Shown here: positions 3,495 through 63,931 of the stretch, piece by piece
Numbering within the stretch: position 1 is the stretch's first letter
Layout: each line of letters starts with the position of its first letter
Origin: an uncultured Chitinophagaceae bacterium
Lineage (GTDB): Bacteria > Bacteroidota > Bacteroidia > Chitinophagales > Chitinophagaceae
DNA length: 64,000 nucleotides
Direction: 5' to 3'
Assembly (NCBI GenBank): GCA_963845495.1
Contig: CAWJTH010000202.1
Coordinates: forward strand, 3,239-67,238
Notes under the pieces: model-generated
The model's input: the letters and a program-made list of their open reading frames with translations, nothing else
Told to the model about the DNA's origin: nothing
Databases searched by the model: none
Position numbers and translations under genes: made by a program

Positions 3495-3638
3495 TGGTGA
3501 GTGGTGAATAGTGAGTGGTGGGTAGGTTCCTCATTATTTATCTTTATCAACCAATAATAACAACGTAATTAAACCAAAAATTGTAGTGGGATATTGAGTT
3601 AACCGATCTACTCACTATTCACCACTCACCACTCACCA
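3495..3638. repeat. intergenic word hairpin (tcacc/ggtga words) filling the spacer up to the cdsA ATG
   Basis: The G/T arm tggtgagtggtgaatagtgagtggtgggtagg (3495-3526) starts right after the upstream stop codon. The C/A arm ctactcactattcaccactcaccactcacca (3608-3638) ends 2 nt before the cdsA ATG. The arms are complementary apart from one bulge. Confidence 0.8.
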
Positions 3639-3640
3639 TT

Positions 3641-4510
3641 ATGGCTTTAAATAAAGAAGTTTTTAGAACCCGGGCGTTAAGCGCCGTGGTATTTGCAATA
3701 GTAATGTTGGCTGGTTTGCTTTGGAACCATTGGAGCTTTTTGTTGCTGTTTAGCATTATCCATTTCGGCTGTTGGTGGGAATATCTTAAAATGATTGAAT
3801 TGATACAACGGGTTAGTTTCCATCGGTTTATAAAATTCGGTTTTATGTTGATGGGCTTTTCCATCATGATATCTTTTTGCGGATTGGCTTATCAAATAAA
3901 GGGTTATGGATTGAGAGAAAACCTTTGTCTGCCGTTGTCTTTAGCAGGGTTTATTTTATTGGTGATCGGCATCTTCCAAAAAAATATTTTTAAGCTGAAA
4001 GCCTTTGGTGCAGCGGCTTTGGGCTGGCTATATATTTCTTTAAGCTGGGGAATGATGCTTGGCTTGCGGCAAGATTGGATGACGTTTCAAGGAACGCACT
4101 TACTGTTTGATTTTGGCCGATATTTTCCAATCGCCTTAATCGTATCTATTTGGATAAATGATACCATGGCTTATATCGTTGGTAGCTTTATCGGCAAAAC
4201 GCCCTTTTCAAAAATTTCACCCAAAAAAACATGGGAAGGCACCATTGGCGGTGCGCTGCTTTGCGTGCTGGTTATGAGTTTGGCTACACATTTTGGGTTT
4301 AAATTTAGTTGGGGTTTATCAATAGGCATCCCGTTAATTGCTGCCGTTATCGGCACATTGGGCGATTTATTGGAAAGTAAAATAAAACGCATGGCCAATG
4401 TAAAAGATAGCGGCAACATGATGCCAGGCCATGGTGGTTTTTTGGATAGATTCGATAGTTTGCTGTTGGCGACACCGTTTGTATGGGTTTTGGTGCAATT
4501 GGTTGCTTAA
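3641..4510 (+). CDS. cdsA: phosphatidate cytidylyltransferase
   Basis: 289 aa and polytopic. It has the C-terminal CdsA signature KTWEGTIGG ... GDLLESKIKRMANVKDSGNMMPGHGGFLDRFDS. Confidence 0.9.
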   Translation: MALNKEVFRTRALSAVVFAIVMLAGLLWNHWSFLLLFSIIHFGCWWEYLKMIELIQRVSFHRFIKFGFMLMGFSIMISFCGLAYQIKGYGLRENLCLPLSLAGFILLVIGIFQKNIFKLKAFGAAALGWLYISLSWGMMLGLRQDWMTFQGTHLLFDFGRYFPIALIVSIWINDTMAYIVGSFIGKTPFSKISPKKTWEGTIGGALLCVLVMSLATHFGFKFSWGLSIGIPLIAAVIGTLGDLLESKIKRMANVKDSGNMMPGHGGFLDRFDSLLLATPFVWVLVQLVA

Positions 4511-4540
4511 AAAAATACATAACTTTACAAAAATTTATTT

Positions 4541-4768
4541 ATGACACTTCAAAATACTTATGAAGTAAATGCTGCAGGTCAATTAATAATAGATTTACCA
4601 AAAGAATTACAAGGCAAAAAAAAATTGCGGGTTATTTTGGAAGATGTGTCAATGGACCGAAAAACTAAAATGGGATTGATGTCTAAAGCTGCCAATGATC
4701 CTTTATACATCCAGGATATGAAAGAAATAGAAAAGGATTTTTCAGATATAGGTTTAGAGAATGAATAG
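4541..4768 (+). CDS. putative antitoxin of the MazF/PemK module
   Basis: 75-aa acidic-tailed ORF whose stop overlaps the start of the downstream PemK/MazF toxin by 8 nt. This is the usual type II TA arrangement. Confidence 0.6.
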   Translation: MTLQNTYEVNAAGQLIIDLPKELQGKKKLRVILEDVSMDRKTKMGLMSKAANDPLYIQDMKEIEKDFSDIGLENE

Positions 4769-5117
4769 AATTTATAAATGGGAAATATATCATGCAAACT
4801 TAGATCCTGTTGTTGGCTCAGAACAAGGGAAGTCAAGGCCTGTATTAGTTTTTAGTGAAAGTGATATCAACAATCTTATAAATACAGTAAATGTTTTGCC
4901 CTTGACTTCCCGAAAAATTAATCGTAATATTTATCCAAATGAAGTGCTTATAAATGCTGGTTTTTTTGGTCTTAAAAATGAATCAATTGTTTTGTGTCAA
5001 CAAATAAGAACACTTGATAAAACAAGATTAGGATTTAAATATGGAGAGATTACCGACCAAATTATTCGATTAGAAATAACTAAAGCTTTTTGTTTTCAGA
5101 TGGGAATAGATTTTTAG
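4761..5117 (+). CDS. mazF: type II toxin, MazF/PemK family mRNA interferase
   Basis: 118 aa. The N-terminal block IYHANLDPVVGSEQGKSRPVLVFS...VNVLPLTS is the PemK/MazF signature. Confidence 0.85.
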   Translation: MNRIYKWEIYHANLDPVVGSEQGKSRPVLVFSESDINNLINTVNVLPLTSRKINRNIYPNEVLINAGFFGLKNESIVLCQQIRTLDKTRLGFKYGEITDQIIRLEITKAFCFQMGIDF

Positions 5118-5160
5118 TTAGCTTACCACTTATTTTTGCCGTCCATTTATTGTGTTATTT

Positions 5161-5820: not shown

Positions 5821-5849
5821 TTGCCACAGATTTATAGATTAGAAAGAAT

Positions 5850-6090
5850 ATTGCCACAGATTCACAGATAAAGCACAGAAGTAAAAAAAAGGATTATTCG
5901 TTTGATGTCACGGATTTACAGAAAGCACAGAGATAAATTAACAGTGCAAAATCTGTGAATCTGTAGCAATAGTTATCAGCGGGGATTCTGTTTTGGTACC
6001 ACAGATTCACAGATAAAGCACAGAAATATCAAGATTCACAGAAAGCACAGAGATAAATTAACAGTGAAAAATCTGTGAATCTGTGGCAAT
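5850..6090. repeat. two tandem hairpin elements (cacagat words) between convergent psd and yihY
   Basis: Copy A spans about 5850-5970 and copy B about 5997-6090. Each begins ccacagattcacagataaagcacagaa and ends aaatctgtgaatctgt(a/g)gcaat, so the termini are inverted repeats. The internal cacagaaagcacagagataaattaacagtg block is shared. Confidence 0.8.
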
Positions 6091-6098
6091 ATAAAAGT

Positions 6099-7121
6099 TT
6101 AACTCCCCACTTTGCGGTTGGTGGGGAGTTCTTTTTTGGCCAATTTTTCCTTTTCTGCTGCATCAACCACTATCTTTTTTTCTTTTGTTTCTTGGTCGGT
6201 CAATGCGCCTTCGTTTAGTACTTCTACCTGATCGAACCAAACAGAGTATTGATTAGGGTAAATTAATTTACCTGTAAGTTTTGCATAAGCCCGTGTAAAT
6301 TCAGCACCAAAATAAAGGATGATGGCAGAATAATAAACCCACGTTAGAATGATAATGATAGAGCCTGCCGCACCATAAGTATTGGCAATTTTGGCGTGGC
6401 CTAAATAAAAACTGATGCCAAATTTGCCAAGCATAAAAAGCACCGCAGTGGTTATCGAGCCAACAGCAACATCTTTCCAACTAATTTTTGCATCGGGCAG
6501 CATCCTGAAAATCAATGAAAAAAGTAACGTAGTGATGCCCAGCGTCAACAATATGTTCACCACATAAATTACGTAAAATGCAATGCCAGGCAAGTGATTA
6601 GTGAGGTAGTTACTAAATGCATCGATTACGGTGTTTATCACCAAAGAAACCAACAACAAAAAGCCCATGCTTAAAATCATCGAAAAACTCAATAATCTAT
6701 TCAATAAAAATTTTCCAAAACCAGTGGAAGGCTTTGCTTTTAAACGCCAAATGGTATTGATGGAATCTTGAATTTCGGTAAAAACCCCGGTGGCTGCAAA
6801 AATTAACGAAGCCACACCTATAATAGAAGCCCAGCCAAAGGATGGCGAAATTGTTGCACTTTTTATAATGTCCTGTATTTGTAACGCCGCATCGCTTCCT
6901 ACGAAACCTTTTATTTGGCCATAAACGGAACCCTGTACGGCATCTTTACCAAAAAAAATATCTGATACATAAATAACAATCATTAAAATAGGAGCCAAGG
7001 AGAAAACAGTGTAATATGCCAATGCTGCACTCATTTTAAACACTTTGTCGTTGGAAGAATCAACCGCTGCAGTTTTAAAAATTTTTAAATATGATTTGAT
7101 TCCTATCTTCATAATTATCAT
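6099..7121 (-). CDS. YihY/BrkB (ribonuclease BN-like) family membrane protein
   Basis: 340 aa and polytopic. The N-terminal AALAYYTVFSLAPILMIV block is typical of the YihY family. Confidence 0.85.
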   Translation of the reverse strand: MIIMKIGIKSYLKIFKTAAVDSSNDKVFKMSAALAYYTVFSLAPILMIVIYVSDIFFGKDAVQGSVYGQIKGFVGSDAALQIQDIIKSATISPSFGWASIIGVASLIFAATGVFTEIQDSINTIWRLKAKPSTGFGKFLLNRLLSFSMILSMGFLLLVSLVINTVIDAFSNYLTNHLPGIAFYVIYVVNILLTLGITTLLFSLIFRMLPDAKISWKDVAVGSITTAVLFMLGKFGISFYLGHAKIANTYGAAGSIIIILTWVYYSAIILYFGAEFTRAYAKLTGKLIYPNQYSVWFDQVEVLNEGALTDQETKEKKIVVDAAEKEKLAKKELPTNRKVGS

Positions 7122-7444
7122 TTTAGTTTATCATTATCCAAATGCCGGGTAGCATCTCGGATGTTCTTTTTTTCAAAGTTTTTTTGCAATGCCTCCGTTA
7201 AATTGGTTCCTGTTTGGTTGGCTATTGCAAAAACCACCCATAAAATATCTGCCAATTCATCGGGCAAATTTTTTCCAAGGTCGTTTTTTTTGAAAGATTG
7301 GTCGCCGTAGGTGCGTGCCATAATGCGAGCCAATTCGCCCACTTCCTCGGTAAGGATGGCCATATTAGTCAATTCACTAAAATATCGTACCCCAACGGTG
7401 GTTATCCACTCATCAACGTTTACTTGTGCTTGTTCGATTGTCAT
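7118..7444 (-). CDS. MazG-like nucleotide pyrophosphohydrolase
   Basis: The ATG at 7444 (MTIEQAQVNVDEWI) lies inside the track ORF. The EEVGELARI ... ELADILWVVFAIANQTG motif pair is MazG-type. The stop overlaps the yihY start by 4 nt. Confidence 0.8.
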   Translation of the reverse strand: MTIEQAQVNVDEWITTVGVRYFSELTNMAILTEEVGELARIMARTYGDQSFKKNDLGKNLPDELADILWVVFAIANQTGTNLTEALQKNFEKKNIRDATRHLDNDKLK

Positions 7445-7475
7445 AACAAAAGTTTCAAAAAAACAGTAAAAATAA

Positions 7476-7540
7476 AAATTCCAAATTCCAACCACTCAAA
7501 GCTAATTTTTGCATTTGAATGTTGTTGGAATTTGGAATTT
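7476..7540. repeat. perfect 17-bp stem hairpin (ccaaattcc words)
   Basis: aaattccaaattccaac (7476-7492) and gttggaatttggaattt (7524-7540) are exact reverse complements. They lie between the PfkB stop and the MazG-like start. Confidence 0.85.
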
Positions 7541-7556
7541 CTTTTTGGTATTTGGC

Positions 7557-9566: not shown

Positions 9567-9594
9567 TTTTAGTGTCAATAGTCAATGGTCAATA

Positions 9595-9780
9595 GTGAAA
9601 CGTGAGACGTGAAATGTGAGACGTGAAATGTGAGACGTGAAACGTGAAACGTGAGACGTGAGACGTGAAATGTGAGGCATGAATCGTGAATCGTGAAATG
9701 TGAATCGTGAGGCATGAAACGTAAGTGAGTCGTTGCGGAATTAGTGAACCCGCTCACGACTCACGTCTGACGATTCACGA
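9595..9780. repeat. long tandem gtgaNNc word array plus short complementary arm
   Basis: Positions 9595-9735 are made almost entirely of cgtgagacgtgaaatgtgaga-type units. The opposing arm cgctcacgactcacgtctgacgattcacga (9752-9780) overlaps the stop of the upstream gene. Track ORF 9575-9757 is a translation of this repeat. Confidence 0.8.
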
Positions 9781-10668
9781 TTTTATTTGTCGGGGCATGT
9801 ATTGTCTGTTTGCTTCGCCACGATTTATTGTTTCAATTGCATCTTTAATAATAGCTAAACTGCTTCGCCATTCTGTTTTTGGCGGATTATATTTAGCAAA
9901 TTTTGCAGCATCTGCCAGCCTAATTGTATTGGCAAATTGGTAAAACAATTCATGGTTTAAAATTGGTTTTGCTTGCAAAATCAATTCATCGCCGGTTTGC
10001 TGCAAACTACGCCAGTTGCGGCTTTCGGCTAAATAACGGCGATAAATATCTATAAGTTGTGTAAAAAAAATGGCCGGTTTTTGTGTCGAAATTTTAGTTT
10101 CCAATTCGCTTAATGCCTGCATGGCATTATCAAAAGGGTTGCCCACCGGAACAAATTGTTTTTTTATTTCTTTTGTAATCTTTGTTTTTTTAATGAAACG
10201 ATAGACCCCAACAATTGAAAGAACCGCAATTAAACCAATGCCTAAAATGTAGGGCCATTGCGGCACTGGCGGTACCTCAATAATATCTTTGATGTCGTGG
10301 TAATCTTTTAACGAATCAACGTTTACGGGTTGCACATCAATGATAAACGAATTGGTGTGAACGGTGGCTTTTGCACCCATAATTTTTAATTCGGGAAATA
10401 CAAACTGGCCCGAATCGTAACTGGTAATGGTGATATTTTGTACCAAGGTGTCGCCATTGCGTTGTGGTTGGCTGCGGCTCCAAATGTCAAAATGCGGTAT
10501 GGAATCGGGGATAATAAATGCATCGTTGTTGCTTGGCGCAATGGAAATCAATTGTACGTGGATAGGCTCCGCAGTGCGGATGGAGGACCTATCGGGTGTG
10601 GCGTTTTGCTGTGCGTTGGCAAAGTGAAAAGTAAAAAGTAAAAAGGATAAAGTAAAAAACCGCATCAT
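9775..10668 (-). CDS. hypothetical signal-peptide/TM protein of the MoxR-DUF58-BatA operon
   Basis: Likely start MMRFFTLSFLLFTFHFANAQ at 10668 (a signal peptide). It has a central TM helix (ILGIGLIAVLSIVGVY). Its position between DUF58 and batA matches Bat operons. No family was recognised with certainty. Confidence 0.6.
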   Translation of the reverse strand: MMRFFTLSFLLFTFHFANAQQNATPDRSSIRTAEPIHVQLISIAPSNNDAFIIPDSIPHFDIWSRSQPQRNGDTLVQNITITSYDSGQFVFPELKIMGAKATVHTNSFIIDVQPVNVDSLKDYHDIKDIIEVPPVPQWPYILGIGLIAVLSIVGVYRFIKKTKITKEIKKQFVPVGNPFDNAMQALSELETKISTQKPAIFFTQLIDIYRRYLAESRNWRSLQQTGDELILQAKPILNHELFYQFANTIRLADAAKFAKYNPPKTEWRSSLAIIKDAIETINRGEANRQYMPRQIKS

Positions 10669-10793
10669 TTTACCTGCGCCAAAATAAAAGCGTTTCAAGG
10701 TTTGACTTATCGTATTAAATTGTGTTTTATCTAAAATCATCATTTTTTCAATCATTAGCACATTAGCTAATCAGCACATTGTCACATTTATTT

Positions 10794-11663: not shown

Positions 11664-11669
11664 AAAAGA

Positions 11670-11935
11670 GATGGCGGATGGCAGTTGATGGATGGCAGAA
11701 TTGGAATTTGGAGGTGCTTATTTTATTTTAATTATTTACTAATGATGACGGTGGGTGGCTGCGATATGAAAATTTAGAAATTCGTTCTGTTATTTTAAAT
11801 CGTTTGTAGCTAATTTGTAATGATTTATTAAACCATTTAAAAGGCGTAAACACTTCTCGAGTAATATGATTTTTTTAAACAAAAAGTAAAGACTATAATT
11901 TCAACTCCGCCATCCGCCAACTACCTACTGCCATC
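11670..11935. repeat. imperfect inverted word arms (gatggc/gccatc) bracketing a 206-bp AT-rich spacer inside the moxR-DUF58 operon
   Basis: gatggcggatggcagttgatggatggcag (11670-11698) starts 7 nt from the DUF58 ATG. ctccgccatccgccaactacctactgccatc (11905-11935) ends 6 nt from the moxR stop. Confidence 0.7.
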
Positions 11936-11940
11936 TTCAC

Positions 11941-12974: not shown

Positions 12975-13090
12975 AAATTAAAAAATAAAAAGTAAAAATT
13001 AAAAAGTACCTACTTGATTAAAAATATTGTGCTATTTCAATTATCCTTTGACATTTGCAATAGGCTTTTAATTTTTACTTTTTAATTTAA
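12975..13090. repeat. inverted aaaagtaaaaatt word arms in a divergent spacer
   Basis: ataaaaagtaaaaattaaaaagta (about 12985-13008) and cttttaatttttactttttaattt (13065-13088) are near-perfect reverse complements, differing by one A-run length. Confidence 0.7.
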
Positions 13091-13094
13091 TACC

Positions 13095-17093: not shown

Positions 17094-18620
17094 ATGAGAA
17101 AATCCCTTGCCGCATTTGTTGCTTTGTATTGTTGCACCATCAATTTATCTGCCCAGAAATCAGTTGAAATGGCGTTGACCGCCAAGCCTGAAAAGCCCGT
17201 GGTGATGAACCGCATGGTAAATGTCGACTCATCTGTTACCACCAAAAACGAAGTAACCATCAAAGGCATTCGGGTTCCGTACACCGCCACCGCTGGCACG
17301 TTGCCGGTTTGGGATGAAGACGGCAAGGCCATCGCCTCCGTTTTTTATACTTATTACGAACGCACCGATGTAAAAGACCGGGCATCGCGGCCACTGGTTA
17401 TTTCTTTCAACGGTGGTCCAGGAACACCGTCTGTTTGGATGGAAATCGGTTACACCGGGCCTCGCATTTTAAATATCGATGAGGAAGGTTACCCAATTCA
17501 ACCGTACGGTGTGCACGAAAACCAGAATTCGATTTTAGATGTGGCTGATATCGTGTACGTGGATCCGGTAAACACAGGTTTTTCACGTCCGGTAAATAAA
17601 GATGTACCCACTAAAACTTTTTACGGTGTAAATGCCGACATAAAATATTTGGCTGAATGGCTAAACACATTTGTAACCCGCAAAAACCGCTGGGCTTCAC
17701 CAAAATATTTAATCGGCGAAAGTTATGGTACCACAAGGGTTTCGGGCTTAGCGCTGGAATTACAAAACGCTCAATGGATGTATTTAAACGGTGTGATTTT
17801 GGTTTCACCAACCGAATTGGGGATCGAAAGAAATGGGCCTGTTGCTGAAGCATTGATGTTGCCATATTATTCGGCTACGGCTTGGTACCACAAGGCATTG
17901 GGCGCCGATTTGTTGCAAAAAGATTTGACCGATATGTTGCCCGAAGTGGAAGATTTTACTATCAACCAATTGATACCGGCCATGGCAAAAGGTAGCAATT
18001 TGCCCGATGACCAAAAGCAACAAATTGCAGCCAAAATGGCCAAATATTGCGGCTTGTCTGAAAAAACAATTTTGCAACATAATTTAGATATTGAGCCAGA
18101 CTTTTTTTGGAAAGAATTGCTGCGTGACAAGGGTTTTACCATTGGCCGCTTAGATTCGCGTTATCGCGGTATCGACAAGCAATCGGCCGGCGAAGGCCCT
18201 GATTACAATGCCGAATTAACGGCTTGGCTGCATGCGTTTACGCCGGCCATCAATATTTATTTGCGGGAGGATTTAAATTTTAAGACTGATTTAAAATACA
18301 ATATGTTCGGCAATGTGTGGCCTTGGGATAACACGCATAACCAAACGGGCGAAAACCTGCGTCAAGCAATGGCGCAAAACCCTTATTTACATTTAATGGT
18401 ACAATCTGGTTATTACGATGGTGCCTGCGATTATTTCAATGCCAAATACAGCATGTGGCAATTGGATCCGAGCGGTAAATTAAAAGATAGGATGACTTGG
18501 AAAGGTTTCCGTAGCGGCCACATGATGTACCTACGCAAAAACGATTTGGTAAACGCTAACGAGCAGCTTCGGGAATTTATAAAAACTTCATTTAAGGCGG
18601 GTGAGCCGGCCAAGTTTTAG
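17094..18620 (+). CDS. S10 family serine carboxypeptidase, secreted
   Basis: 508 aa with a signal peptide. It has ISFNGGPGTPSVW and the catalytic-serine block GESYGTTRV characteristic of peptidase S10. Confidence 0.85.
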   Translation: MRKSLAAFVALYCCTINLSAQKSVEMALTAKPEKPVVMNRMVNVDSSVTTKNEVTIKGIRVPYTATAGTLPVWDEDGKAIASVFYTYYERTDVKDRASRPLVISFNGGPGTPSVWMEIGYTGPRILNIDEEGYPIQPYGVHENQNSILDVADIVYVDPVNTGFSRPVNKDVPTKTFYGVNADIKYLAEWLNTFVTRKNRWASPKYLIGESYGTTRVSGLALELQNAQWMYLNGVILVSPTELGIERNGPVAEALMLPYYSATAWYHKALGADLLQKDLTDMLPEVEDFTINQLIPAMAKGSNLPDDQKQQIAAKMAKYCGLSEKTILQHNLDIEPDFFWKELLRDKGFTIGRLDSRYRGIDKQSAGEGPDYNAELTAWLHAFTPAINIYLREDLNFKTDLKYNMFGNVWPWDNTHNQTGENLRQAMAQNPYLHLMVQSGYYDGACDYFNAKYSMWQLDPSGKLKDRMTWKGFRSGHMMYLRKNDLVNANEQLREFIKTSFKAGEPAKF

Positions 18621-18627
18621 TTGGGCC

Positions 18628-18821
18628 GTGTCAGACGCCTTTGTATTTTGGGCGTCTGACACATGGACGTGGATGAATATTTGCCTAGAAGGATGGAAAC
18701 ACGGATGGGACAGATCGAAGGGATTTTCACGGATTTATTGTTTGGATGATTTAATCCTATCCAAGCAATAAATCCGTTTTTTTCTGTTCCATCTGTTCCA
18801 TCCGTGTTTCCATCCTTCTAG
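18628..18821. repeat. composite repeat: 12-bp stem hairpin plus 137-bp nested cacggat palindrome (copy 1)
   Basis: gtgtcagacgcc tttgtattttg ggcgtctgacac spans 18628-18662. ctagaaggatggaaacacggatgggacagat (18685-18715) pairs with atctgttccatccgtgtttccatccttctag (18791-18821) with 1 mismatch. An inner cacggatttattg/caataaatccgt stem is nested inside. Confidence 0.85.
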
Positions 18822-19880
18822 TTACCGATCCTGCATTTCCACATTTTCAAAATAAATTTTATAAAATTTTCGGCCGTCGCTTTCCACGCCTTGCTGAATC
18901 AATTCGCGGTTACCGTGAATGTAAACATGGAAGTTTTTATCCAATTTCAACACATTCTTAAACATTTTAGCTTGCTTTTTTACTGCTTGCCCATTAATTT
19001 CAAATTGGTCATCTAATTCAATTCCATTCTTTTCTCTATATTTTTCATCAAAATCTTGAAAAGATTCGATGAGATTGGCATGATGGAAAACTTCGTTCTC
19101 AAATTCTGATTTTTCGAATTGCTCGTGGGTTTTAAAATATTCGACAGAGCGGTTTAGCAAGTCAATCTGGTCGGTTTTGGTGAGGCTAAATTCTTCCGAA
19201 ACTTGTTGTGTTACAAAATTTTTGGTGATGGCCATCATATCTTTTGTAAAATGATAAGCATCGCTGCAAGGTTTTATTTGCAAGAACAATTCTTTCCAAT
19301 ATTGCGCTTCTTGTTGTTTGTTCGATTTGTCGATGACACAAACTTTATAGCCGTTTTCCTTGTCGGTGTTCAAAATAATGCATCCTTTATCTAACTTGTC
19401 GATGTTGATGCCGTCTTCAAATTTGATGGAAAATTCGCCCGACTCGTTACCTACTTTTAAAAAAGATTGCTTGTTTTCCGATTTAAAAATACCGATGGCA
19501 TCCATTGGTTGGTCATCAATACCCAAATTAGAAAAATAGGCTACAAATACATCGCCCGGTTTTATATTGGGATGAGTGGAAACTTCATATAAGTGTTTGG
19601 CAATATCAACCGAAGTTGGCTGCAACGTGTTATGATCCTCAAAAACCTGCGAAGCAAAATGAAAAAGCGGGTTCAAATTAAAATCGCCGTTGCTAAAAGT
19701 AAAATTGTAAAATTCTGCGGTGGCAAAAGGCGGAATAAAAAATTTAAATAGCAATTCTTTGGTATTATCTTCCTCAATATCCATCAAATTGGTAGAAAGG
19801 TATATTTCTTCGCCATTCGTTTTGTTGCCTACGTGATGCAGGGCAACCTGTTCTAATTTGGCCGCGGTAAAATCGAGCAT
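18822..19880 (-). CDS. nucleoid-associated protein (NdpA/YejK-like)
   Basis: 352 aa. The N-terminal L.QVALHHVGNK..GEEIYLS block and the overall size match the Bacteroidota NdpA-like family. Assignment is by recognition only. Confidence 0.75.
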   Translation of the reverse strand: MLDFTAAKLEQVALHHVGNKTNGEEIYLSTNLMDIEEDNTKELLFKFFIPPFATAEFYNFTFSNGDFNLNPLFHFASQVFEDHNTLQPTSVDIAKHLYEVSTHPNIKPGDVFVAYFSNLGIDDQPMDAIGIFKSENKQSFLKVGNESGEFSIKFEDGINIDKLDKGCIILNTDKENGYKVCVIDKSNKQQEAQYWKELFLQIKPCSDAYHFTKDMMAITKNFVTQQVSEEFSLTKTDQIDLLNRSVEYFKTHEQFEKSEFENEVFHHANLIESFQDFDEKYREKNGIELDDQFEINGQAVKKQAKMFKNVLKLDKNFHVYIHGNRELIQQGVESDGRKFYKIYFENVEMQDR

Positions 19881-19916
19881 GGTAAAAAGTTGGCGGCAAA
19901 AATATGAAGCTCGAAC

Positions 19917-20114
19917 GTGTCAGCCACCTTTGTATTTTGGGCGTCGGACACATGGCCTGTTTAGGGCGTGTTAGAAGCCCAGCAAAGATGGGAACGCGGA
20001 TGACACAGATTTGACGGAAAAGAATAGATTTAAAACCTTGCGGCTTTGAAAATAAGCTAGCCAATAATAAATCCGTGCAAATCCTTCTGATCCGTGTCAT
20101 CCGTGTTCCCATCC
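19917..20114. repeat. composite repeat, degenerate copy 2, same orientation as 18628-18821
   Basis: gtgtcagccacctttgtattttgggcgtcggacacatgg (19917-19955) matches copy 1 with substitutions. It is followed by gatgggaacgcggatgacacagat ... gatccgtgtcatccgtgttcccatcc imperfect palindrome arms. Track ORF 19774-20112 is a translation artefact of it. Confidence 0.75.
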
Positions 20115-21330: not shown

Positions 21331-21336
21331 AAGCGG

Positions 21337-21420
21337 TGAGCTATTAGCTGTTAGCTTTGAGCTATCAAAATAGATAGTTTTATCAAGGCTCAAAGCTCAT
21401 AGCTCACAGCTCAAAGCTCA
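21337..21420. repeat. intergenic word hairpin (agctNNgagct words)
   Basis: gtgagctattagctgttagctttgagctatc (21337-21366) and ggctcaaagctcatagctcacagctcaaagctca (21387-21420) are imperfectly complementary. They occupy most of the HD-lpxD spacer, from 7 nt after the stop to 5 nt before the ATG. Confidence 0.75.
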
Positions 21421-22477: not shown

Positions 22478-22820
22478 GCAATTTTCATTTGGTTGTAACA
22501 ATTGGAAAGCCAAAACCGCACAATTTTCCAAGCTTAAAAATTTTTTTAAAAAGAAATTATTTTTGCCAATAGAGCAAAAGCATGGGCCTTTGTGAGCCAT
22601 AATTAATGGTATTGTTAAGTGAATGATGCCGTGGAAAACCATTGTTCAACGGAGCTCCTCGATGCCTCAGGATAAACTTTGCCACAAATGCTCCTACATT
22701 GCTTCCAAAGCTGGTCACCAAAAAACCTTTTGTACCCATACTTTTGCAACAATAAACAATTAGAAATTTTTATCTAAGAATGGTGTAATTATTCACCATT
22801 CACTATTTACCATTCACGAT

Positions 22821-25800
22821 ATGGACTACGATTTCAGGAAAATTGAGCAGGCTTGGCAAGAAAAATGGAAGGCAACCCAAGCTTACAAAACCACCAACGA
22901 CACCACAAAACCAAAGTGTTATGTGCTGGATATGTTTCCTTACCCAAGTGGTGCGGGACTGCATGTGGGTCATCCGTTGGGCTACATTTCAAGCGATATT
23001 TATAGCCGATATAAAAGGCTGAAAGGTTTTAACGTGCTGCACCCCATGGGTTATGATGCTTTTGGTTTGCCGGCCGAACAATATGCCATTGAAAAAGGTG
23101 TGCATCCTGCCGTTTCAACCGAAGAAAATATTGCCAATTTCCGCAAGCAGTTAGACAATATTGGCTTCAGCTACGATTGGGACCGTGAAGTTCGTACCAG
23201 CGAAGCCAGCTATTATAAATGGACGCAATGGATTTTTCTGCAATTGTTCCATAGCTTTTTTAATCGTATCGATAACCGGGCCGAACATTTGTCGGTATTG
23301 ATCGAATCGTTTGAAAATGAAGGAAGTTTGGTACATGAGATTCCAAATACGAAATACGAAATACGAGAAACGGGCAAAAACTCTTTTACCGCCGAAGAAT
23401 GGAATGGCTTCGACGAAAAAACCAAACACGATATTTTAATGGAATACCGCCTGGCGTTTTGTGGCTATGGCGAAGTGAATTGGTGCGAAGCACTGGGCAC
23501 CGTTTTGGCCAACGACGAAGTGGTGAACGGCGTAAGCGAACGTGGCGGTTATCCGGTAGAAAAAAAACGCCTCCGCCAATGGTATTTGCGCATTACCGAA
23601 TATGCTGATCGCTTGCTGAAAGGTTTAGAAACCGTTGATTTTAGCGAGGCAATGAAAGAAATGCAAAGCAATTGGATCGGAAAAAGTTATGGGGCGGAAA
23701 TTGAGTTCAACCTCACCCCCGGCCCCTCTCCACAAGTGGCGAGGGGTGCCTCTGTGCAAGTGTCATCACAGTCGGAAAATCCGGGTTCAAAAAATTCAGT
23801 CGTTCCTAAGTATTCAATCGTATCTATTAAGCAGTTCGAGCTAGCAAGAGAAAATAGAAAAGGTCATACAGAGGCAGAAGCAATTTTATGGAAAGAATTA
23901 CGTGGAAATAACTTGGGTGAAAAATTTAGGCGCCAACACCCAATTGATGCCTATATCGTCGATTTTGTTTCTCTTCAAAACAAATTGATAATTGAAATTG
24001 ATGGCGGTTATCATGAAACGGAAGACCAAAAAATTTATGACGATGCCCGTAGCAGTGTGTTAAATCAAATTGGTTTTAAAGTAATCCGATTTACTAACGA
24101 AGAGGTGATCAATCACACAAAAGAAACAATAAAAAGAATAAAAGAAGCACTCGCGGAAGAACAGCAAGAAGCCACAAATATTCACGAACCCGCAATTGGC
24201 AAACAGTCAGCCAGCTTCACAGAGGCACCCCTCGCCACGAGTGGAGAGGGGACGGGGGTGAGGTCTTTAGTCGTTTACACAACCCGCCCCGACACCATTT
24301 TTGGTGTTGATTTTATGGTTATTGCGCCGGAACTGGATTGGATTCCAAGCATTGTTTCGGAAGCACAAAAAGAAGAAGTTGAAAATTATATTGCTTACGT
24401 AAAAAGCCGTAGCGAACGGGAGCGCCAAGCGGAGAAAAAGATAAGTGGTTGTTTTACAGGTGCTTATGCCATCAATCCGTTTAACGGAAAAGAAATTCCG
24501 ATTTGGATAAGCGAATATGTTTTAGCTGGTTATGGCACAGGTGCTATTATGGCCGTGCCTTGCGGCGATGACCGTGATTTTAAGTTTGCGCAGCATTTCA
24601 ATATTCCCATCACTAATATTTTGGGCGATGCGTTTAATGGAAATGAAGCTAATCCAACTAAAGATGCGAAGCTAACTAATAGTGGTTTTTTAGACGGCGT
24701 GGTAATGCGGGATGCCATCCAAATTGTAAATGCCAAGCTGGAAGAAATGGGCATTGGCAAGGCCAAAGTAAATTACCGGATGCGGGATGCGGCGTTTAGC
24801 AGGCAGCGCTATTGGGGCGAGCCATTCCCGATTGTTTGGAAAAACGGTATTGCTTATGCATTGGATGAAAGCGAATTGCCACTGGAACTGCCCAAAGTAG
24901 ATGGTTATGGCCCGGGACCAGATGGCGAAGGTCCGCTAGCAAATATTTTAGAATGGACGGCACAAAACTTGGAAACGAACACCATGCCTGGTTATGCCGG
25001 TTCATCGTGGTACTTTTTAAGGTATATGGATCCGCACAACGACCAAGTTTTTTGCGACCGCAAAGCCAGCGATTATTGGAACCAAGTAGATATTTACATC
25101 GGCGGCACCGAACATGCCGTTGGCCATTTATTGTATAGTCGCTTGTGGACCAAGGTTTTATACGATCTTGGGTTTATTGGTTTTGATGAACCGTTCAAGA
25201 AATTGGTGAACCAAGGGATGATTCAGGGAAGTTCGAGGTTTGTGTATAGAATTGTTGGAACCAATCAGTTTGTTTCCGCCGGCAAAAAAAATGAATACAA
25301 CGTAACCCCTTTGCACGTAGACGTGAATCTTGTTGATGGCTATGAACTTGATATTGAAGCATTTAAAAAATGGAAACCAGAATTTGCCGATGCTGAGTTT
25401 GTATTTGAAGACGGTACTCTTTCTTTTTCTTGCACTATTGGTACCGCAAAAGATATGAAATATATCTGCGGCTCTGAGGTTGAAAAAATGAGTAAAAGGT
25501 ATTACAACACTGTTAATCCTAACGATATATGTGAAAAATACGGTGCTGATACTTTCCGCATGTACGAAATGTTCTTGGGGCCGGTGGAAGCGTCTAAACC
25601 TTGGGAAACCAAAGGCATTGAAGGCGTTCATCGTTTTCTTAAAAAATTGTGGCGCTTATTTTTTACGGATACTACTTTTTCAAATGGAAAAGCAGTGCAA
25701 GGCAAACCAGTTTGGAACGACCAACCCGCTACACCGCAAGAATTGAAAGTGTTGCACAAAACTATCCGCAAAATTGATGATGACACGGAAAAATTCAGTT

Positions 25801-40176: not shown

Positions 40177-40292
40177 GGGTTAGTGGGTAGTGGTAAGTAG
40201 CCAGTAGGCTTACAAGTGAGTAGTGGTTAAACAATCTCGAGAGGGTAAATATTTCGGCCTGCTAGCCATTTTCTACTCCCCACTTGCCAGCC
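40177..40292. repeat. intergenic word hairpin between the kinase and the regulator
   Basis: The G/T arm gggttagtgggtagtggtaagtagccagtaggcttacaagtgagtagtgg opposes the C/A arm ctactccccacttgccagcc, which ends at the kinase stop codon. Complementarity is imperfect. Confidence 0.65.
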
Positions 40293-44389: not shown

Positions 44390-45373
44390 ATGATCCTCAT
44401 TACCGGCGGTACCGGCTTACTTGGCCAACAACTAATTGCACATTTGCACCAAAAAGGCATTCAAGACATTGTTGCTCCATACCGAAGTTCAATTCCCATT
44501 GGTTTTGAACAAAAAGCCCGTTGGGTAAAAGGCGATATTTTGGATGTTATTTTTTTGGAAGAAATAATGCGAGGCATTACGGAAGTATATCATTGCGCTG
44601 GTTATGTTTCTTTTAGCCCAAAACATAAGGCAGAATTATATCAAGTAAATGTTGATGGAACCGCAAATGTAGTAAATGCTAGTTTGGATGCCGGCGTACG
44701 AAAACTGGTACATGTAAGCAGCGTAGCGGCATTGGGCCGCTACCACCAAGGCAAGGTTATTTCCGAAAAAATGGAATGGACCGAAAAATCGAATAATAGC
44801 GAATACGGCAAAACAAAATACTTGGGCGAGATGGAAGTGTGGCGTGGCATTGGCGAAGGGTTGGATGCGGTCATCGTAAACCCAACTATTATTATAAGCC
44901 AATATGGCGATTGGACAAAAGGCTCGATGGCCATTTTCAAAAATATTTACAATGGTTTTCCTTGGTATAGCACGGGCAGTGCAGGCTTTGTAAGTGCATT
45001 AGATGTTGCCGAAGCCATGTACCAATTAATGCAAAGCGATATTTCTGCGCAGCGTTTTATTGTAAACGCCGAAAACAAAACATTTAAAGATTTATTTTTT
45101 ATGATTGCCGATGCCTTTGGCAAAAAAAGACCATCAAAAGCCGTAACGCCTTTTTTAGCGGCCATTGTTTGGCGAGTAGAGAAAATAAAAAGTTTCTTCA
45201 CCAAAAAAGATCCGATGGTAACAAAAGAAACGGCGGATTCGGCTCTGTCAACCGTGCAATTTGACAATACGGCCTTGCTGAAAGCCTTGCCCAGCTTTAC
45301 TTACACGCCCATACAAAAAAGCGTGGAAGAAATTTGCAAGCAATTGAAAGCGAAAACCGTGAATAGTGAATAG
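44390..45373 (+). CDS. NAD-dependent epimerase/dehydratase family (extended SDR)
   Basis: 327 aa. It has the Rossmann motif ILITGGTGLLG and a YGKTK catalytic YxxxK. Confidence 0.85.
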   Translation: MILITGGTGLLGQQLIAHLHQKGIQDIVAPYRSSIPIGFEQKARWVKGDILDVIFLEEIMRGITEVYHCAGYVSFSPKHKAELYQVNVDGTANVVNASLDAGVRKLVHVSSVAALGRYHQGKVISEKMEWTEKSNNSEYGKTKYLGEMEVWRGIGEGLDAVIVNPTIIISQYGDWTKGSMAIFKNIYNGFPWYSTGSAGFVSALDVAEAMYQLMQSDISAQRFIVNAENKTFKDLFFMIADAFGKKRPSKAVTPFLAAIVWRVEKIKSFFTKKDPMVTKETADSALSTVQFDNTALLKALPSFTYTPIQKSVEEICKQLKAKTVNSE

Positions 45374-45506
45374 TGAGTGGTGAATAAGTTTCAGATAGTA
45401 ATTATTTCCTGATAATTACAAGAATTAAAAACAAAAAAATTAATCAGTTACAGGGAAAGCTCAAATTTAGTGAGCCAACTCACGACTGACCACTCACGAT
45501 TCACGC
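45359..45506. repeat. word hairpin between convergent genes, with arms overlapping both gene ends
   Basis: gtgaatagtgaatagtgagtggtgaata (45359-45386) supplies the last codons (VNSE, stop) of the SDR gene. ctcacgactgaccactcacgattcacgc (45479-45506) overlaps the stop and last codon of lpxD-2. Confidence 0.75.
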
Positions 45507-46550: not shown

Positions 46551-46677
46551 TTATTTCTCGTCCTTTTATTTCTTGTCCTTGTTTTCTTGCCCTTCTGGTT
46601 CTTGTTTTCTTGCCTCCTTGCCTCCTTGTTTCTTGTCTCCTTGTTTTCTTGCCTTCTTGTAGCCTCGTCCTCTTGTC
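46551..46677. repeat. about 125-nt strand-asymmetric C/T/G tract, almost free of A on the plus strand
   Basis: It is built from cttg(t/c) words. The 16-mer t(c/t)cttgttttcttgcc occurs three times. Track ORFs 46354-46772 are translations of this tract. Confidence 0.8.
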
Positions 46678-46725
46678 TCTTTATTCCTATATTTTCAATA
46701 TTTATTGAAAATATAGGAATAAAGA
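46678..46725. repeat. perfect 23-bp inverted repeat with a 2-nt spacer
   Basis: tctttattcctatattttcaata tt tattgaaaatataggaataaaga, 30 nt upstream of the ATG at 46756. Confidence 0.9.
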
Positions 46726-48562: not shown

Positions 48563-48989
48563 TTATCAAAAAGACGGATTTATTATTTCAACCGATAAGT
48601 CTTTGCTGGATATAAATTACATCCATCATTATTTGTCGACGGAAAGTTATTGGGCGCAAGGCATACCTTACGAAACCGTTAAACGCTCCATCGAGAATTC
48701 TTTTTGTTTTGGTATGTATAAAAATGGAAAACAAATTGGTTTTGCGAGGGTAATTACAGATTTTGCCACTTTTGCGTGGCTCTGCGATGTGTTTGTGAAT
48801 GAAGATTTCAGAGGATTAAGCTTGGGGAAATGGTTGATGGAAACAATCCACAGCCATCCAACATTGCAAGGTTTTCGGGCGTGGATGTTGGGTACAAAAG
48901 ACGCCCACGGATTGTATGCCCAATTTGGTTACGGCCCGCTTCCCGAACCGCATCGGATAATGCGGAGGACCGGAAAAATTCCAAAATAA
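48549..48989 (+). CDS. GNAT family N-acetyltransferase
   Basis: Likely start MENDNYQKDG. It has a V..DFRG.GLGKWLM acetyl-CoA binding motif. Confidence 0.8.
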   Translation: MENDNYQKDGFIISTDKSLLDINYIHHYLSTESYWAQGIPYETVKRSIENSFCFGMYKNGKQIGFARVITDFATFAWLCDVFVNEDFRGLSLGKWLMETIHSHPTLQGFRAWMLGTKDAHGLYAQFGYGPLPEPHRIMRRTGKIPK

Positions 48990-49134
48990 AAAAAATCCAA
49001 ATCCCAACAAATTAGACATTCACCTGATTATTCTAACTTTTATGTACGATGATTTTAAAGTGGAAATTTTAAAATAGACTCGCAAGTCCCACTAGTTGAA
49101 ATTTGGAATTTTCCCTTTTGGAATTTGTACATCC

Positions 49135-52863: not shown

Positions 52864-52866
52864 GCC

Positions 52867-53276
52867 GGTACTAAGTATTTAGATGTTAGTACTTAGACAG
52901 ACCAAGATCAACTTTGAAAGACGATTAGCAATAGAAAAGATTTTTAAAAGAAGAAGAGATAAAAGACATTTAAACAGACCTAAAGGATATTTAGCTTTTT
53001 GTTTTTTATTGAAAGCGTTTACTTTGGCTATAAAAACATTCTTGCAATGTTGCAGTATATAATTCTTATATTTTTTATCGTAAGTCCTTTTGTAATCGAT
53101 TTAACAATATCAATATTTAAGAAGCCTAAAAAACAAATTGTTGTTAAGGATGAAAAAAATAGTTTTTGGGTGGATGGCATAATGCGTGTTTTTGAAATTA
53201 TTGGAGGACGTTATTATTAATGGGCAAAAAAACTCGGTTCTGTCTAACTACTAAATACTAACATCTAAATACTTAA
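52867..53276. repeat. inverted tagta/ttaga word arms bracketing about 340 bp with a small ORF
   Basis: ggtactaagtatttagatgttagtacttagacag (52867-52900) and ctgtctaactactaaatactaacatctaaatacttaa (53240-53276) share a 19-nt perfect complementary core. The right arm ends at the batB-like ATG. Confidence 0.75.
53047..53220 (+). CDS. possible 57-aa single-TM protein inside the repeat-bracketed spacer
   Basis: ATG at 53047 within track ORF 52999-53220 (MLQYIILIFFIVSPFVIDLTISIF...). There is no other support. Confidence 0.25.
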   Translation: MLQYIILIFFIVSPFVIDLTISIFKKPKKQIVVKDEKNSFWVDGIMRVFEIIGGRYY

Positions 53277-59428: not shown

Positions 59429-59448
59429 TTTATAGAGATAATAAAAGA

Positions 59449-61275: not shown

Positions 61276-61280
61276 CCATA

Positions 61281-61994: not shown

Positions 61995-62076
61995 AAAATA
62001 GTACTTTAGTATTTAGATGTTAGTATTTAGACTCGGAAAAACTAACGACTAAACGATTACATAGTTTTATTTTTTT

Positions 62077-62284
62077 GAACCACAAAGGCTCGAAGTAAAA
62101 GAAGAAGCACGAAGGAAATAAGGAATAATAAATACAAAATAAAGAATAAAAAAATGCAATGCTAGTTAGAAAAAATACTTATAAAAATCATTACTTCTTT
62201 TTTTATTACTAATCAGCAGAATCACATAAATCATAGTTCAGACAACCTTTGTGCTTCTTCTTTTCCTTTGTGTCTTCGTGGTTC
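62077..62284. repeat. imperfect 39-bp inverted arms (cacgaag/cacaaagg words) around an AT-rich loop
   Basis: The arms are gaaccacaaaggctcgaagtaaaagaagaagcacgaagg (62077-62115) and cctttgtgcttcttcttttcctttgtgtcttcgtggttc (62246-62284). Confidence 0.75.
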
Positions 62285-62293
62285 AATTTTTTC

Positions 62294-62911
62294 TCATTTA
62301 AATACCAACTCATTTGCTAAATCAATTTCATCTTTAATAATAGTGTGGCCCATATTGTTATAAATTTTTTCGGTTACAATTGCGTTCATATTTTTTAATA
62401 TTTCGGCACTTGCTTTTACCCGCTCAACCGGAATGTGGGCATCTGGATTACTTGAGCCAACAAAAATAGGTGTGCCGTTAAAATCGCCGTTGTAGTTTTC
62501 CATATAAATTTTATCGCCAATTAACCCGCCGGAAAAAGCTGCTACGCCACCCCATTTTTTTGCATTGCGGGTTACAAATTCAAGCGATAAACATGCCCCC
62601 TGTGAAAAACCTGTGAAGTAAATACTTTCTGTTGAAATGCCTTGTTTCATAATGTCATCCACCAATTCATTTGTTAAATCCAATGCTGAGGAAAGCCACG
62701 GTTCATTTTGCTTCGGCGGTGCCAAAAATGAATACGGATACCAAGAGTAACCAGTTGCCTGTGGCGCAAACAAGGCAAAATCCTTAACATTCAAATGATT
62801 GGCCAATGACAAAATATCTTCCGCATTTGCACCGCGGCCATGCAGCATAATTAACGCTTTTGTTGCGTCGCCTAGTTTTTTTCCAGCCGTTATTATATTT
62901 TTCTTGTGCAT
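62294..62911 (-). CDS. alpha/beta hydrolase, phospholipase/carboxylesterase family (MhqD-like)
   Basis: Likely start MHKKNIITAGKK. It has the nucleophile elbow GFSQGA and a C-terminal H in GHTI. Confidence 0.8.
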   Translation of the reverse strand: MHKKNIITAGKKLGDATKALIMLHGRGANAEDILSLANHLNVKDFALFAPQATGYSWYPYSFLAPPKQNEPWLSSALDLTNELVDDIMKQGISTESIYFTGFSQGACLSLEFVTRNAKKWGGVAAFSGGLIGDKIYMENYNGDFNGTPIFVGSSNPDAHIPVERVKASAEILKNMNAIVTEKIYNNMGHTIIKDEIDLANELVFK

Positions 62912-62986
62912 TGTTTTAGCGTAAATTGTTTTGAATAAATGTGTAACCAAAACCCAATATTTAGTCTTTGTACTAAATACTAAATA

Positions 62987-63931
62987 CTAAATACTTGGAC
63001 TTAACACAGGCAACGCTTTTGTAATTCTTTCCCTTGACGGCTCGTATTGTGTTGGCAACATTAAATGAGTGCCCAATTCAGCAACTGGTTCGTCTTTATC
63101 AAATCCCGGATTGTCCGTGGCCAATTCAAACAACACGCCACCCGGTTCGCGGAAGTACAACGAATAAAAATAATCGCGGTCAATTTTAGGGGTGATGTGT
63201 AAACCTTTGCTAGCCACTTTTTCACGGTATTCCATTAAAATATCATCGTTGGCAACCCTAAAAGCCACGTGGTGGTTGGTGCCTGCTGAATTGCGACCGG
63301 GTGCCAAATTGGGTTCTTCTAATATATCTACAATCGATGCATTTTCAATGGCATCGGTAATAAAACGGTAACGGTTTCCTTCTTGTTTCAACAAGCGGTA
63401 ACCAAAAATATCGGTTAAAATAGCCGCTGTTGGGGCAACTTTTCTAAGCGTTAAAGTAATGCTGTGAAAACCTTTTGTGGCAACATCAGCCTTTACTTCA
63501 GCCGTTTCCCATGGTTTCCGGTTATCGGCAAAGCTCGGTTCAATTAAATCAAGCTTTAGGCCGTCCGGGTCTTGAAATGATAAAAATGTTTCGCCGAACT
63601 TTTCATCGATTTCTCCGTGACGGACACCAAATTGGTCGAACCTGTTTTTCCAAAATTCCAAACTATCTACGGGAACGGAGTAACCAATATCAGTGGCCAT
63701 TCCAGAACCGGTGTGCCCTTGCGGAATTCTGCCCCATGGAAAAAATGTGAGTATAGTTCCAGGTGTTCCTGTTTCGTTGCCAAAATAAAAATGATAGGTG
63801 CTGGGATCGTCAAAATTCACTGTTTTTTTCACCATCCTTAACCCAAGCACTTTGGTATAAAATGCAAGGTTTTTGTTCGGGTCGCTGGCAATCGCCGTAA
63901 TGTGGTGGATGCCTAATATTTTGTTTTCCAT
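62987..63931 (-). CDS. VOC-family ring-cleaving dioxygenase (MhqO/YkcA-like)
   Basis: 314 aa. ILGIHHITAIASDPNKNLAFYTKVLGLRMVKKTVNFDDPSTYHFYFGNETGTPGTILTFFPW is very close to the Bacillus MhqO/MhqE-type N-terminus as I recall it. Confidence 0.88.
   Translation of the reverse strand: MENKILGIHHITAIASDPNKNLAFYTKVLGLRMVKKTVNFDDPSTYHFYFGNETGTPGTILTFFPWGRIPQGHTGSGMATDIGYSVPVDSLEFWKNRFDQFGVRHGEIDEKFGETFLSFQDPDGLKLDLIEPSFADNRKPWETAEVKADVATKGFHSITLTLRKVAPTAAILTDIFGYRLLKQEGNRYRFITDAIENASIVDILEEPNLAPGRNSAGTNHHVAFRVANDDILMEYREKVASKGLHITPKIDRDYFYSLYFREPGGVLFELATDNPGFDKDEPVAELGTHLMLPTQYEPSRERITKALPVLSPSI

Follow-up and report, generated by a model that had tools for sequence, protein, structure and literature searches.

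The window analysed here, a stretch of 64,000 nucleotides from an uncultured bacterium of the family Chitinophagaceae (GenBank assembly GCA_963845495.1, contig CAWJTH010000202.1, referred to below as contig C202, positions 3239-67238), contains a series of intergenic hairpins whose arms are arrays of a short tandem word, and the question that it raises is what kind of element these hairpins are. Two older puzzles bear on the answer. Heptanucleotide repeats, i.e., the STRR (short tandemly repeated repetitive) sequences and the long simple sequence repeats (SSRs), have been catalogued since 1990 and we know of no agreed origin or role for them, nor do we know of a function for S23p, the protein of rRNA intervening sequences. 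The elements in the window share one anatomy: two inverted short tandem arrays, with the G-rich, C-poor arm first, typically run from the stop codon of one gene to just before the start of the next and enclose a unique AT-rich loop. On balance, we favour the reading that they belong to a genome-wide population of heptamer-armed hairpins, similar both to STRR sequences and to intervening sequences, whose arms evolve in concert and probably form RNA stems of the RNase III type. Hairpin arms of the same architecture flank all of the genome's S23p genes, and this architecture also forms the stems of S23p-type intervening sequences in 23S rRNA.

The loci in the window were recovered by inverted-repeat and tandem-repeat scans, and their spans were folded as RNA and compared with dinucleotide shuffles, which also served as the chance control for the genome-wide counts. 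The repeat-armed hairpins that the initial annotation had described at 17 loci are real, in that their arms were found again by both kinds of scan at nearly all of these loci, and 13 of the loci are strong inverted repeats. The inverted repeats at 40182-40284 and 48972-49126 are weak, and the remaining two loci, 22790-22817 and the pair 62005/62963, are no hairpins. Twelve of the 16 spans that were folded reach z <= -4 on at least one strand. The arms do abut stop and start codons at the listed loci, and at 45359-45504 it can be read directly from the sequence that the array supplies the end of the SDR protein (...VNSE*). The statement that most spacers are occupied was too strong: of the 48 spacers in the window 7 pass strict criteria and about 14-17, a third, pass loose ones, and genome-wide the proportion is approximately 8%.

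Over the whole genome, tandem arrays are dominated by period 7 (1,473 arrays), followed by periods 14 (471) and 21 (205), and 72% of the period-7 arrays lie in the non-coding DNA that makes up 16% of the genome. Mostly coding arrays account for 728 of the 2,273 of period 7 or 8, and heptamer arrays within coding sequence are also seen in the window, in uvrA and in the hypothetical gene 9775-10761 (37852-37880, 38305-38331 and 10621-10658). Inverted repeats with a score of at least 14 occur in 812 of the 3,543 spacers as compared with 23 in the shuffles, and there are 270 cases of arms of at least 20 nt with a period-7/8 autocorrelation of at least 0.6, as compared with 12. Our working definition of a periodic hairpin, with arms of period 7 or 8, returned 301 of these 812. 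Nineteen of these are copies of a fixed-sequence, REP-like (repetitive extragenic palindrome) hairpin with a 7-nt loop (TTCAGTGTTTCTGTGCCTCAGTGGCAAA, e.g., C197:17044-17104), which met the periodicity filter by accident and was kept apart from the word hairpins, leaving 282 heptamer hairpins in the 3,543 spacers where roughly 12 are expected by chance. The word itself, originally put at 5-8 nt, is essentially 7 nt long, which is also the period that dominates the genome, with 8-9 nt in a few loci.

The arms of these hairpins have a median length of 27 nt and a median complementarity of 0.90, the loops have a median length of 49 nt, and a hairpin takes up a median 74% of its spacer. In 54% of cases no more than 5 nt separate its start from a stop codon, and in 30% it overlaps the end of the gene. 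The arms are 70% A+T, with 8.5% C in the 5' arm and 9% G in the 3' arm. Promoters in the loops were also considered and rejected: the Bacteroidota -7 promoter motif TAnnTTTG is rare in the loops of co-directional spacers (4 of 146) and present in those of divergent ones, which is weak evidence because the motif discriminates poorly in this genome.

The polarity of the arms, described at the outset as the G/T-rich arm coming first, is a strong rule: the 5' arm has more G than C in 234 hairpins and less in 39, whichever way the neighbouring genes face. The rule extends to unpaired arrays when these are read in the sense direction, since G exceeds C in those that follow stop codons (303:72) and C exceeds G in those that precede start codons (177:52). 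As a result of the G-first polarity, the 5' arms are rich in stops and the 3' arms poor in starts. Specifically, stops in all three frames are found in 50% of the 5' (stop-proximal) arms and 21% of the 3' arms, while 62% of the 3' (start-proximal) arms and 26% of the 5' arms are free of ATG, GTG and TTG. Neither the hairpins nor their polarity are confined to one genome, for 751 spacers from 80 loci of other Chitinophagaceae contain 28 periodic hairpins with a polarity of 24:4.

The two arms of a hairpin are also linked to each other. Spacers with two separated arrays have the same word in inverted orientation in 179 cases, the same word in direct orientation in 12 and different words in 142, so it is in pairs that arms come into being or last. 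Variant units follow each other in mirrored order in the two arms, beyond what their shared pool of units accounts for (p <= 0.05), in 13 of 28 elements with at least five units. Because the repeat registers make alignments non-homologous, we replaced a formal per-column covariation analysis by a matrix of self- versus cross-complementarity. At the spacer between moxR and the DUF58 gene, compared in 15 genomes, the normalised score of arm match is 0.72 within genomes and 0.23 across genomes. The within-genome match far exceeds the cross-genome match, and the two arms, about 450 nt apart, have thus changed in concert, which bears out the suggestion that arm pairs co-vary.

The hairpins turn over rather than being conserved. 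In same-genus genomes, whose coding DNA is 70-78% identical to that studied here, the orthologous spacers hold other words or no hairpin. Upstream of cdsA our genome uses GTGAGTG, whereas the spacer holds a TTGGCAG hairpin in two genomes, no more than a left array of GGTGAAT in another and nothing in a fourth; before batA, TCACGNN is replaced by TTGCCNN in one genome and no hairpin is present in two; between moxR and DUF58, GATGGCR is replaced by GGTGAAT in one genome, and another has a spacer of 32 nt; and in the convergent SDR/lpxD2 spacer GTGAATA is replaced by CAAATGT in one genome. At 52864-53276 our genome has a full hairpin and three others have only G-rich arrays after the stop codon. 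Orthologous spacers thus have the architecture in common but not the sequence, and it is present in some genomes and missing in others. The spacers are therefore dynamic, the arms vary together and the pattern extends well beyond the window, so that none of the three outcomes against which the initial annotation had staked its proposal (static spacers, no compensatory variation, a pattern limited to the window) was observed.

The same comparisons yielded some observations on the sequences next to these hairpins. The 70-aa open reading frame (ORF) between cdsA and a CPBP protease gene (MNKNWYLIYTT..., 3282-3494), for which Pfam gave no match, is kept in five same-genus genomes, and in one congener it is flanked on either side by hairpins built from one and the same word. 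In three congeners (L115-L117) the spacer orthologous to the 354-nt loop at 52864-53276 carries a small ORF (e.g., MAGYIILGVILLIGALVIW...) and a GC-rich hairpin, neither of which is seen in the window.

A connection to a known system comes from the S23p genes. The genome contains 16 genes of PF05635 (S23p, the 23S rRNA intervening-sequence protein), and all 16 are bracketed by inverted arms of period 7 or 8, each cassette using its own word. Fourteen are co-directional with both neighbours, the arms mostly lie -9 to +22 nt from the flanking genes, and the left arm has an excess of G over C in 13 cassettes, a balance in 2 and a deficit in 1. The paralogues have a median amino-acid identity of only 33% and must be old, and some of the arms are perfect over 38 nt. 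Three cassettes are missing at the orthologous sites of most same-genus genomes compared. The S23p cassette is the real cargo-bearing form of the heptamer hairpin. In contig C211 a three-gene operon has such a cassette in each of its two consecutive spacers (17827-18300 and 19181-19678). Two same-genus genomes lack both cassettes at the orthologous sites, and in another genome there is a larger insert at one of the two.

The moxR-DUF58 site allows the different states of such a spacer to be compared. Among 77 Chitinophagaceae loci with both genes adjacent, the spacer is shorter than 40 nt in 36, measures 40-276 nt without arms in 26, holds an S23p cassette in 13 (11 of them with clear periodic arms) and has arms only in 2; the genome studied here and a congener are in this last state as well. 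The arm words of related genomes are alike, with the form G[AT]TG[ATG]C[AG]G. Inside the loop in our genome, the conceptual peptide LFKKIILLEKCLRLLNGLINHYKLATN matches the C-terminal helix of the S23p proteins specific to this site, which are the top 9 of 7,834 ORFs, with single-match scores only marginally above those of shuffled peptides. Judging from this translation, 11802-11882 is probably what is left of an S23p gene's 3' end, and 11669-11936 is probably an S23p cassette that lost its gene.

These properties can be combined into a picture of how the element may evolve and function. The arms would lengthen and shorten by slippage of 7 nt at a time, and either templated correction or selection on pairing would keep them complementary. 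In a polycistronic RNA, an AU-rich stem of 20-60 bp would loop out the spacer or the S23p cargo and bring the flanking stop and start codons together. By analogy with intervening sequences the stem would be a substrate of RNase III, a gene for which is encoded in the genome, and once it is cut the upstream mRNA would end in a stop-rich tail and the downstream one would begin with a G-poor, start-codon-free, unstructured leader. Bacteroidota rarely use Shine-Dalgarno sites, and for this reason a start-free, unstructured leader would suit their mode of initiation. We infer these processing steps by analogy, and the same analogy can be taken one step further: heptamer hairpins with and without S23p may form one widespread class of self-insulating 'intercistronic intervening sequences', which would insert exactly between stop and start and be removed from the RNA through an RNase III-processed stem. 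We regard this extension as possible but doubtful.

Several results count against reading the loci as processed RNA stems. Divergent spacers (22:7) do not show a stronger polarity than convergent ones (52:14), so the argument from the leader cannot be the whole cause of it. A search with two S23p profiles found no remnant besides that at 11669-11936 in 240 loops of 60-450 nt (120 periodic and 120 non-periodic), and most loops are too short to hold one. S23p copy number does follow period-7 array density in 27 relatives (Spearman 0.48-0.50, p about 0.01) and shows no correlation with arrays of other periods (0.11), but these values are uncorrected for phylogeny, and some period-7 arrays occur also in genomes where no S23p gene was found. 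The gene calls underlying the spacer set are crude, with ORFs of at least 90 aa and the longest start taken. Finally, mismatches on the sense strand of the periodic class are G:U and A:C about equally often (150:138), and the class therefore lacks the wobble signature of selection for RNA pairing, whereas in ordinary non-periodic hairpins G:U is preferred (150:102, p = 0.003).

Because the wobble result speaks against RNA pairing being under strong selection, a mutational origin with filtering of orientation is a serious rival, albeit in our estimate an unlikely one. In this account the arrays are products of slippage and their inverted partners of strand-switch or quasi-palindrome copying, the stems have no RNA function, selection only filters orientation (stop-rich arrays after genes, start-free arrays before them), and S23p genes tolerate or prefer such sites. 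The equal frequency of G:U and A:C mismatches in the periodic class speaks for it, as do the unpaired arrays that follow the same polarity rule, the arrays in genomes where no S23p gene was found and the patchy presence at orthologous spacers. It is also consistent with the spacer before batA, where the arm at 9595-9722 is expanded by slippage relative to its 30-nt partner, showing how far one arm can outgrow the other. However, inverted same-word pairs exceed direct ones 15 to 1, old paralogues with 33% identity keep near-perfect arms, and arms with approximately 450 nt of S23p gene between them remain complementary even as the word changes from genus to genus, for which templated correction over such a distance is hard to picture.

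The hairpins could instead be the transcription terminators or attenuators of this lineage, with stems that happen to be built from repeats. Their association with gene 3' ends is indeed about 2.4 times that with 5' ends, as judged from occupancies of 10.9% in convergent, about 8.4% in co-directional and 3.7% in divergent spacers, and most of them begin right after the stop codon. Nevertheless, a T-rich tail follows only 13% of the stems, so these are not canonical terminators, for which the length of the loops and the AT-rich composition of the stems are also wrong. In addition, many hairpins lie inside operons, between tightly linked genes, and end at the next start codon, others bracket co-directional S23p genes, and 24 are found in divergent spacers. 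We consider this explanation quite improbable, and agree with the initial annotation that the loci are more than ordinary terminators.

Its suggestion of a family of miniature elements fares worse. If the hairpins were MITEs (miniature inverted-repeat transposable elements) or REP-like sequences, they would be non-autonomous copies moved by a transposase that recognises their terminal repeats. It had been thought that each locus has its own word; this is true locally, but genome-wide the arms group into about 10 large dialect clusters and 65 singletons, with 108 canonical words in all, and one arm, AGTATTTAGATGTTAGTAYTTAGAC, exists in about 20 near-identical copies, including those at 52872 and 62005 in the window. 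Such clusters, as well as the presence or absence of S23p cassettes at orthologous sites, speak for mobile copies. The loops tell otherwise: 162 of the 181 loops of at least 35 nt in periodic hairpins have no second copy in the genome, so the hairpins are not MITE copies. No terminal sequence is common to all dialects, and no target-site duplication was noticed in the spacer comparisons, which did not include a systematic search. The truly dispersed families of this genome are unlike the hairpins, with GC-rich 47-nt arms, with the REP-like hairpin TTCAGTGTTTC..., or, among non-periodic inverted repeats in general, with loops that are repeated in the genome in 61 of 175 cases. The probability that we give to mobile copies is very small.

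The elements in leuS and beside uvrA, proposed earlier as the cargo-bearing extreme of the hairpins, turn out to be one of these separate dispersed families, with 29 BLAST matches and arms of 47-49 nt that are GC-rich and non-periodic. The in-frame insert in leuS (23710-24264, 555 bp) has 47-nt inverted arms and encodes a DUF559 domain (residues 342-444 of a 1,124-aa product). In the second element (39073-39399), which lies between uvrA and the gene of the LytTR regulator, perfect 49-nt inverted arms of the same family surround 229 nt, and the one on the left extends over the start of the uvrA ORF. A REP-like hairpin of 40 nt (CGTGTCAGACGCC...GGGCGTCTGACACATGG) is present 14 times in the genome; both copies in the window, at about 18627-18666 and 19916-19955, adjoin heptamer hairpins, preceding those at 18685-18821 and 19987-20113, respectively.

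Lastly, the arrays might be binding sites of a sequence-specific RNA- or DNA-binding regulator, with complementarity of the arms a secondary matter, as their fixed orientation against start codons and the precedent of TAACTGA repeats (PMC4679880) would allow, but this is highly improbable, as more than 100 different words leave no single recognition sequence, TAACTGA arrays were not found in the genome and the strong preference for inverted same-word pairs stays unexplained.

The individual features of the window are collected in Table 1. The two arrays of the same dialect at 62005-62033 and 62963-62991 flank a segment that holds a carboxylesterase gene and the hairpin at 62075-62286; they obey the polarity rule and probably do not form a single hairpin. 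In the divergent spacer between lpxD2 and the gene at 46756 (46599-46725), a 10-unit array of period 8 (TTCTTGTC) adjoins a perfect 23-nt palindrome (46678-46700/46703-46725) with a loop of 2 nt. No match to Rfam was obtained anywhere in the window.

Table 1. Repeat-built features of the window. Positions are those of the window; z compares RNA folding with dinucleotide shuffles.
Feature	Position	Strand	Structure	Context
Hairpin TGGTGAG/GTGAATA	3483-3650		arms 3495-3516/3610-3631, 22 nt, 100% complementary, loop 93 nt; z -6.4/-4.3	from stop of conserved 70-aa ORF (TGA 3492-3494) to 2 nt before cdsA ATG (3641)
Composite CACAGAT hairpin	5848-6097		outer arms 5848-5869/6071-6092, 22 nt, 100%; two internal unit copies, 5849-5876/5944-5971 and 5988-6014/6071-6097; z -9.2	convergent psd/yihY spacer
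AAATTCC hairpin	7470-7546		arms 7470-7495/7521-7546, 26 nt, 88%, loop 25 nt; z -7/-9.7	overlaps end of ORF 7118-7495
GTGAAAC array and complementary arm	9574-9782		18 units (9595-9722, 128 nt) against arm 9753-9782 (30 nt)	hypothetical gene-batA spacer; array abuts batA start
Unpaired period-8 array CATTAGCA	10753-10788		G-rich in sense direction	after stop; fills 32-nt spacer between DUF58 and hypothetical gene
GATGGCR hairpin	11669-11936		40-nt arms, about 80% complementary, loop 188 nt	from moxR stop to 5 nt before DUF58 start
Candidate S23p 3'-end remnant	11802-11882	-	translates to LFKKIILLEKCLRLLNGLINHYKLATN	in loop of hairpin 11669-11936
AAAGTAAAAATT hairpin	12982-13088		arms 12982-13004/13066-13088, 23 nt, 96%	divergent moxR/ybjQ spacer; stops 6 nt short of ATG at 13095
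CACGGAT-type hairpin	18685-18821		arms 18685-18747/18759-18821, 63 nt, 84%, loop 11 nt; z -14.7	
CACGGAT/CACAGAT hairpin	19987-20113		arms 19987-20032/20068-20113, 46 nt, 76%	
GAGCTNT hairpin	21332-21418		arms 21332-21362/21388-21418, 31 nt, 81%	fills 94-nt spacer before lpxD (ATG 21425)
Unpaired ATTCACC array	22790-22817	+	4 units, not a hairpin; C-rich, G-poor in sense direction; z -2.6/-1.0	ends 3 nt before leuS ATG
Weak GTGGGTA-type inverted repeat	40182-40284		28 nt, 75%; z -3.2/-0.9	between histidine kinase and LytTR regulator
GTGAATA hairpin	45359-45504		29-nt arms	convergent SDR/lpxD2 spacer; left array encodes last four SDR codons and stop (VNSE*)
Weak AAATTCC-type inverted repeat	48972-49126		74-93% over 14-27 nt; z -1.7/-1.9	
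TAGTAYTTAGATGT arms	52872-53275		arms 52872-52896/53251-53275, 25 nt, 96%, loop 354 nt	ends 1 nt ahead of ATG at 53277
Hairpin of 9-nt word CGCAGAAAA	61146-61286		arms 61146-61183/61249-61286, 38 nt, 92%; z -13/-17	
Two same-dialect arrays	62005-62991		62005-62033 and 62963-62991, 79% complementary, 929 nt apart	
Irregular CACGAAG-type hairpin	62075-62286		arms 62075-62115/62246-62286, 41 nt, 85%, loop 130 nt	

The host is a soil-type bacterium with an assembly of 5.75 Mb in 232 contigs and a G+C content of 38.8%, in which no 23S gene was found. The heptamers at first suggested a heterocystous cyanobacterium. This was ruled out by the cyanobacterial octamer HIP1, which occurs only 18 times in the genome and is not enriched, and by the Chitinophagaceae neighbours: in a species-level genome collection the nearest DUF58 orthologues are those of Chitinophagaceae metagenome-assembled genomes, at no more than 71% amino-acid identity. 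The genes of the window are likewise typical of Bacteroidota (moxR-DUF58-batA, two lpxD paralogues, psd, cdsA, leuS, uvrA and a LytTR two-component pair).

With cyanobacterial STRR sequences the hairpins share tandem 7-bp units that are dispersed, abundant and mostly intergenic. They differ in their host and also in their words: the canonical words of STRR1-3, reportedly given by Mazel in 1990 as CCCCAGT, TTGGTCA and CAACAGT, yield 0, 1 and 0 dimers in this genome. Hairpins of 7-bp STRR units between the co-transcribed cyanobacterial genes hupS and hupL have been proposed to act in transcript stability or translational coupling (PMC2670836), and those described here are similarly capable of forming hairpins between co-transcribed genes, with the same roles proposed. 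The polarity, the abutment on stop and start codons and the association with S23p were not found in the literature consulted, which did not include Mazel 1990, Elhai 2008 or Mrazek 2007.

S23p-type intervening sequences of 23S rRNA (in Coxiella, Leptospira and others) resemble the hairpins in the long stem that their terminal inverted repeats form around an optional S23p ORF and, in the case of Coxiella, in tandem heptamers. That of Coxiella has a terminal stem of 28 bp, within which RNase III cleaves, and a 5' region with tandem GACAGAT heptamers, the number of which varies between strains (PMC4990558); words related to this heptamer (GATGACAG) are found in S23p cassettes of the relatives. 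In contrast to the rRNA insertions, which occupy helix 25 or 45 of 23S rRNA, our loci lie between protein-coding genes, and most hairpins here have no ORF, S23p being present in the 16 cassettes elsewhere in the genome and, among the 17 loci of the window, only as the candidate remnant at 11669-11936. The design common to STRR repeats and rRNA intervening sequences suggests one origin for both.

In many bacteria no unit of long SSRs is as frequent as the heptamer, and polymerase slippage has been proposed as the source of such repeats (Mrazek 2007, as summarised in PMC4679880). As with such SSRs, arrays with units of 5-11 nt are in this genome far commoner than those of neighbouring periods and are concentrated outside genes. 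The 70-75 convergent inverted pairs of the heptamer GGGAATC in Xanthomonas (PMC4692102) are different, as our hairpins use many words, are AT-rich rather than G-quadruplex-forming and extend over the whole spacer from stop to start. The TAACTGA repeats of Beggiatoaceae, located upstream of start codons, have been proposed to be regulator binding sites (PMC4679880). In being small, intergenic and hairpin-forming inverted repeats the elements are like MITEs and REP sequences or their paired form (REPIN); unlike these, they have no conserved whole element, their loops are unique and their termini are not common across dialects. Compared with an intrinsic terminator, i.e., a short GC-rich stem with a loop of 3-8 nt and a U-tract, the arms are AT-rich, the loops longer and T-rich tails uncommon. 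In the literature consulted, which lacked Elhai 2008 and Mrazek 2007, we found no paper that ties STRR hairpins, heptamer SSRs and S23p intervening sequences together.

This genome gives the puzzles of heptanucleotide repeats and of S23p one testable frame, made up of the architecture, the polarity and the concerted arms, and the orthologous moxR-DUF58 site displays empty, S23p-bearing and cargo-less states across 77 genomes. There are also practical consequences, as heptamer hairpins break assemblies, mislead the calling of start codons and sometimes add codons to proteins. If the intercistronic class were to prove true, it would account for the excess of heptanucleotides in many bacteria, for the STRR sequences of cyanobacteria and for the origin of S23p-type rRNA intervening sequences, and S23p would be a factor belonging to the element itself. 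Should the stems be processed, the hairpins would constitute a common and so far unannotated layer of operon punctuation in Bacteroidota.

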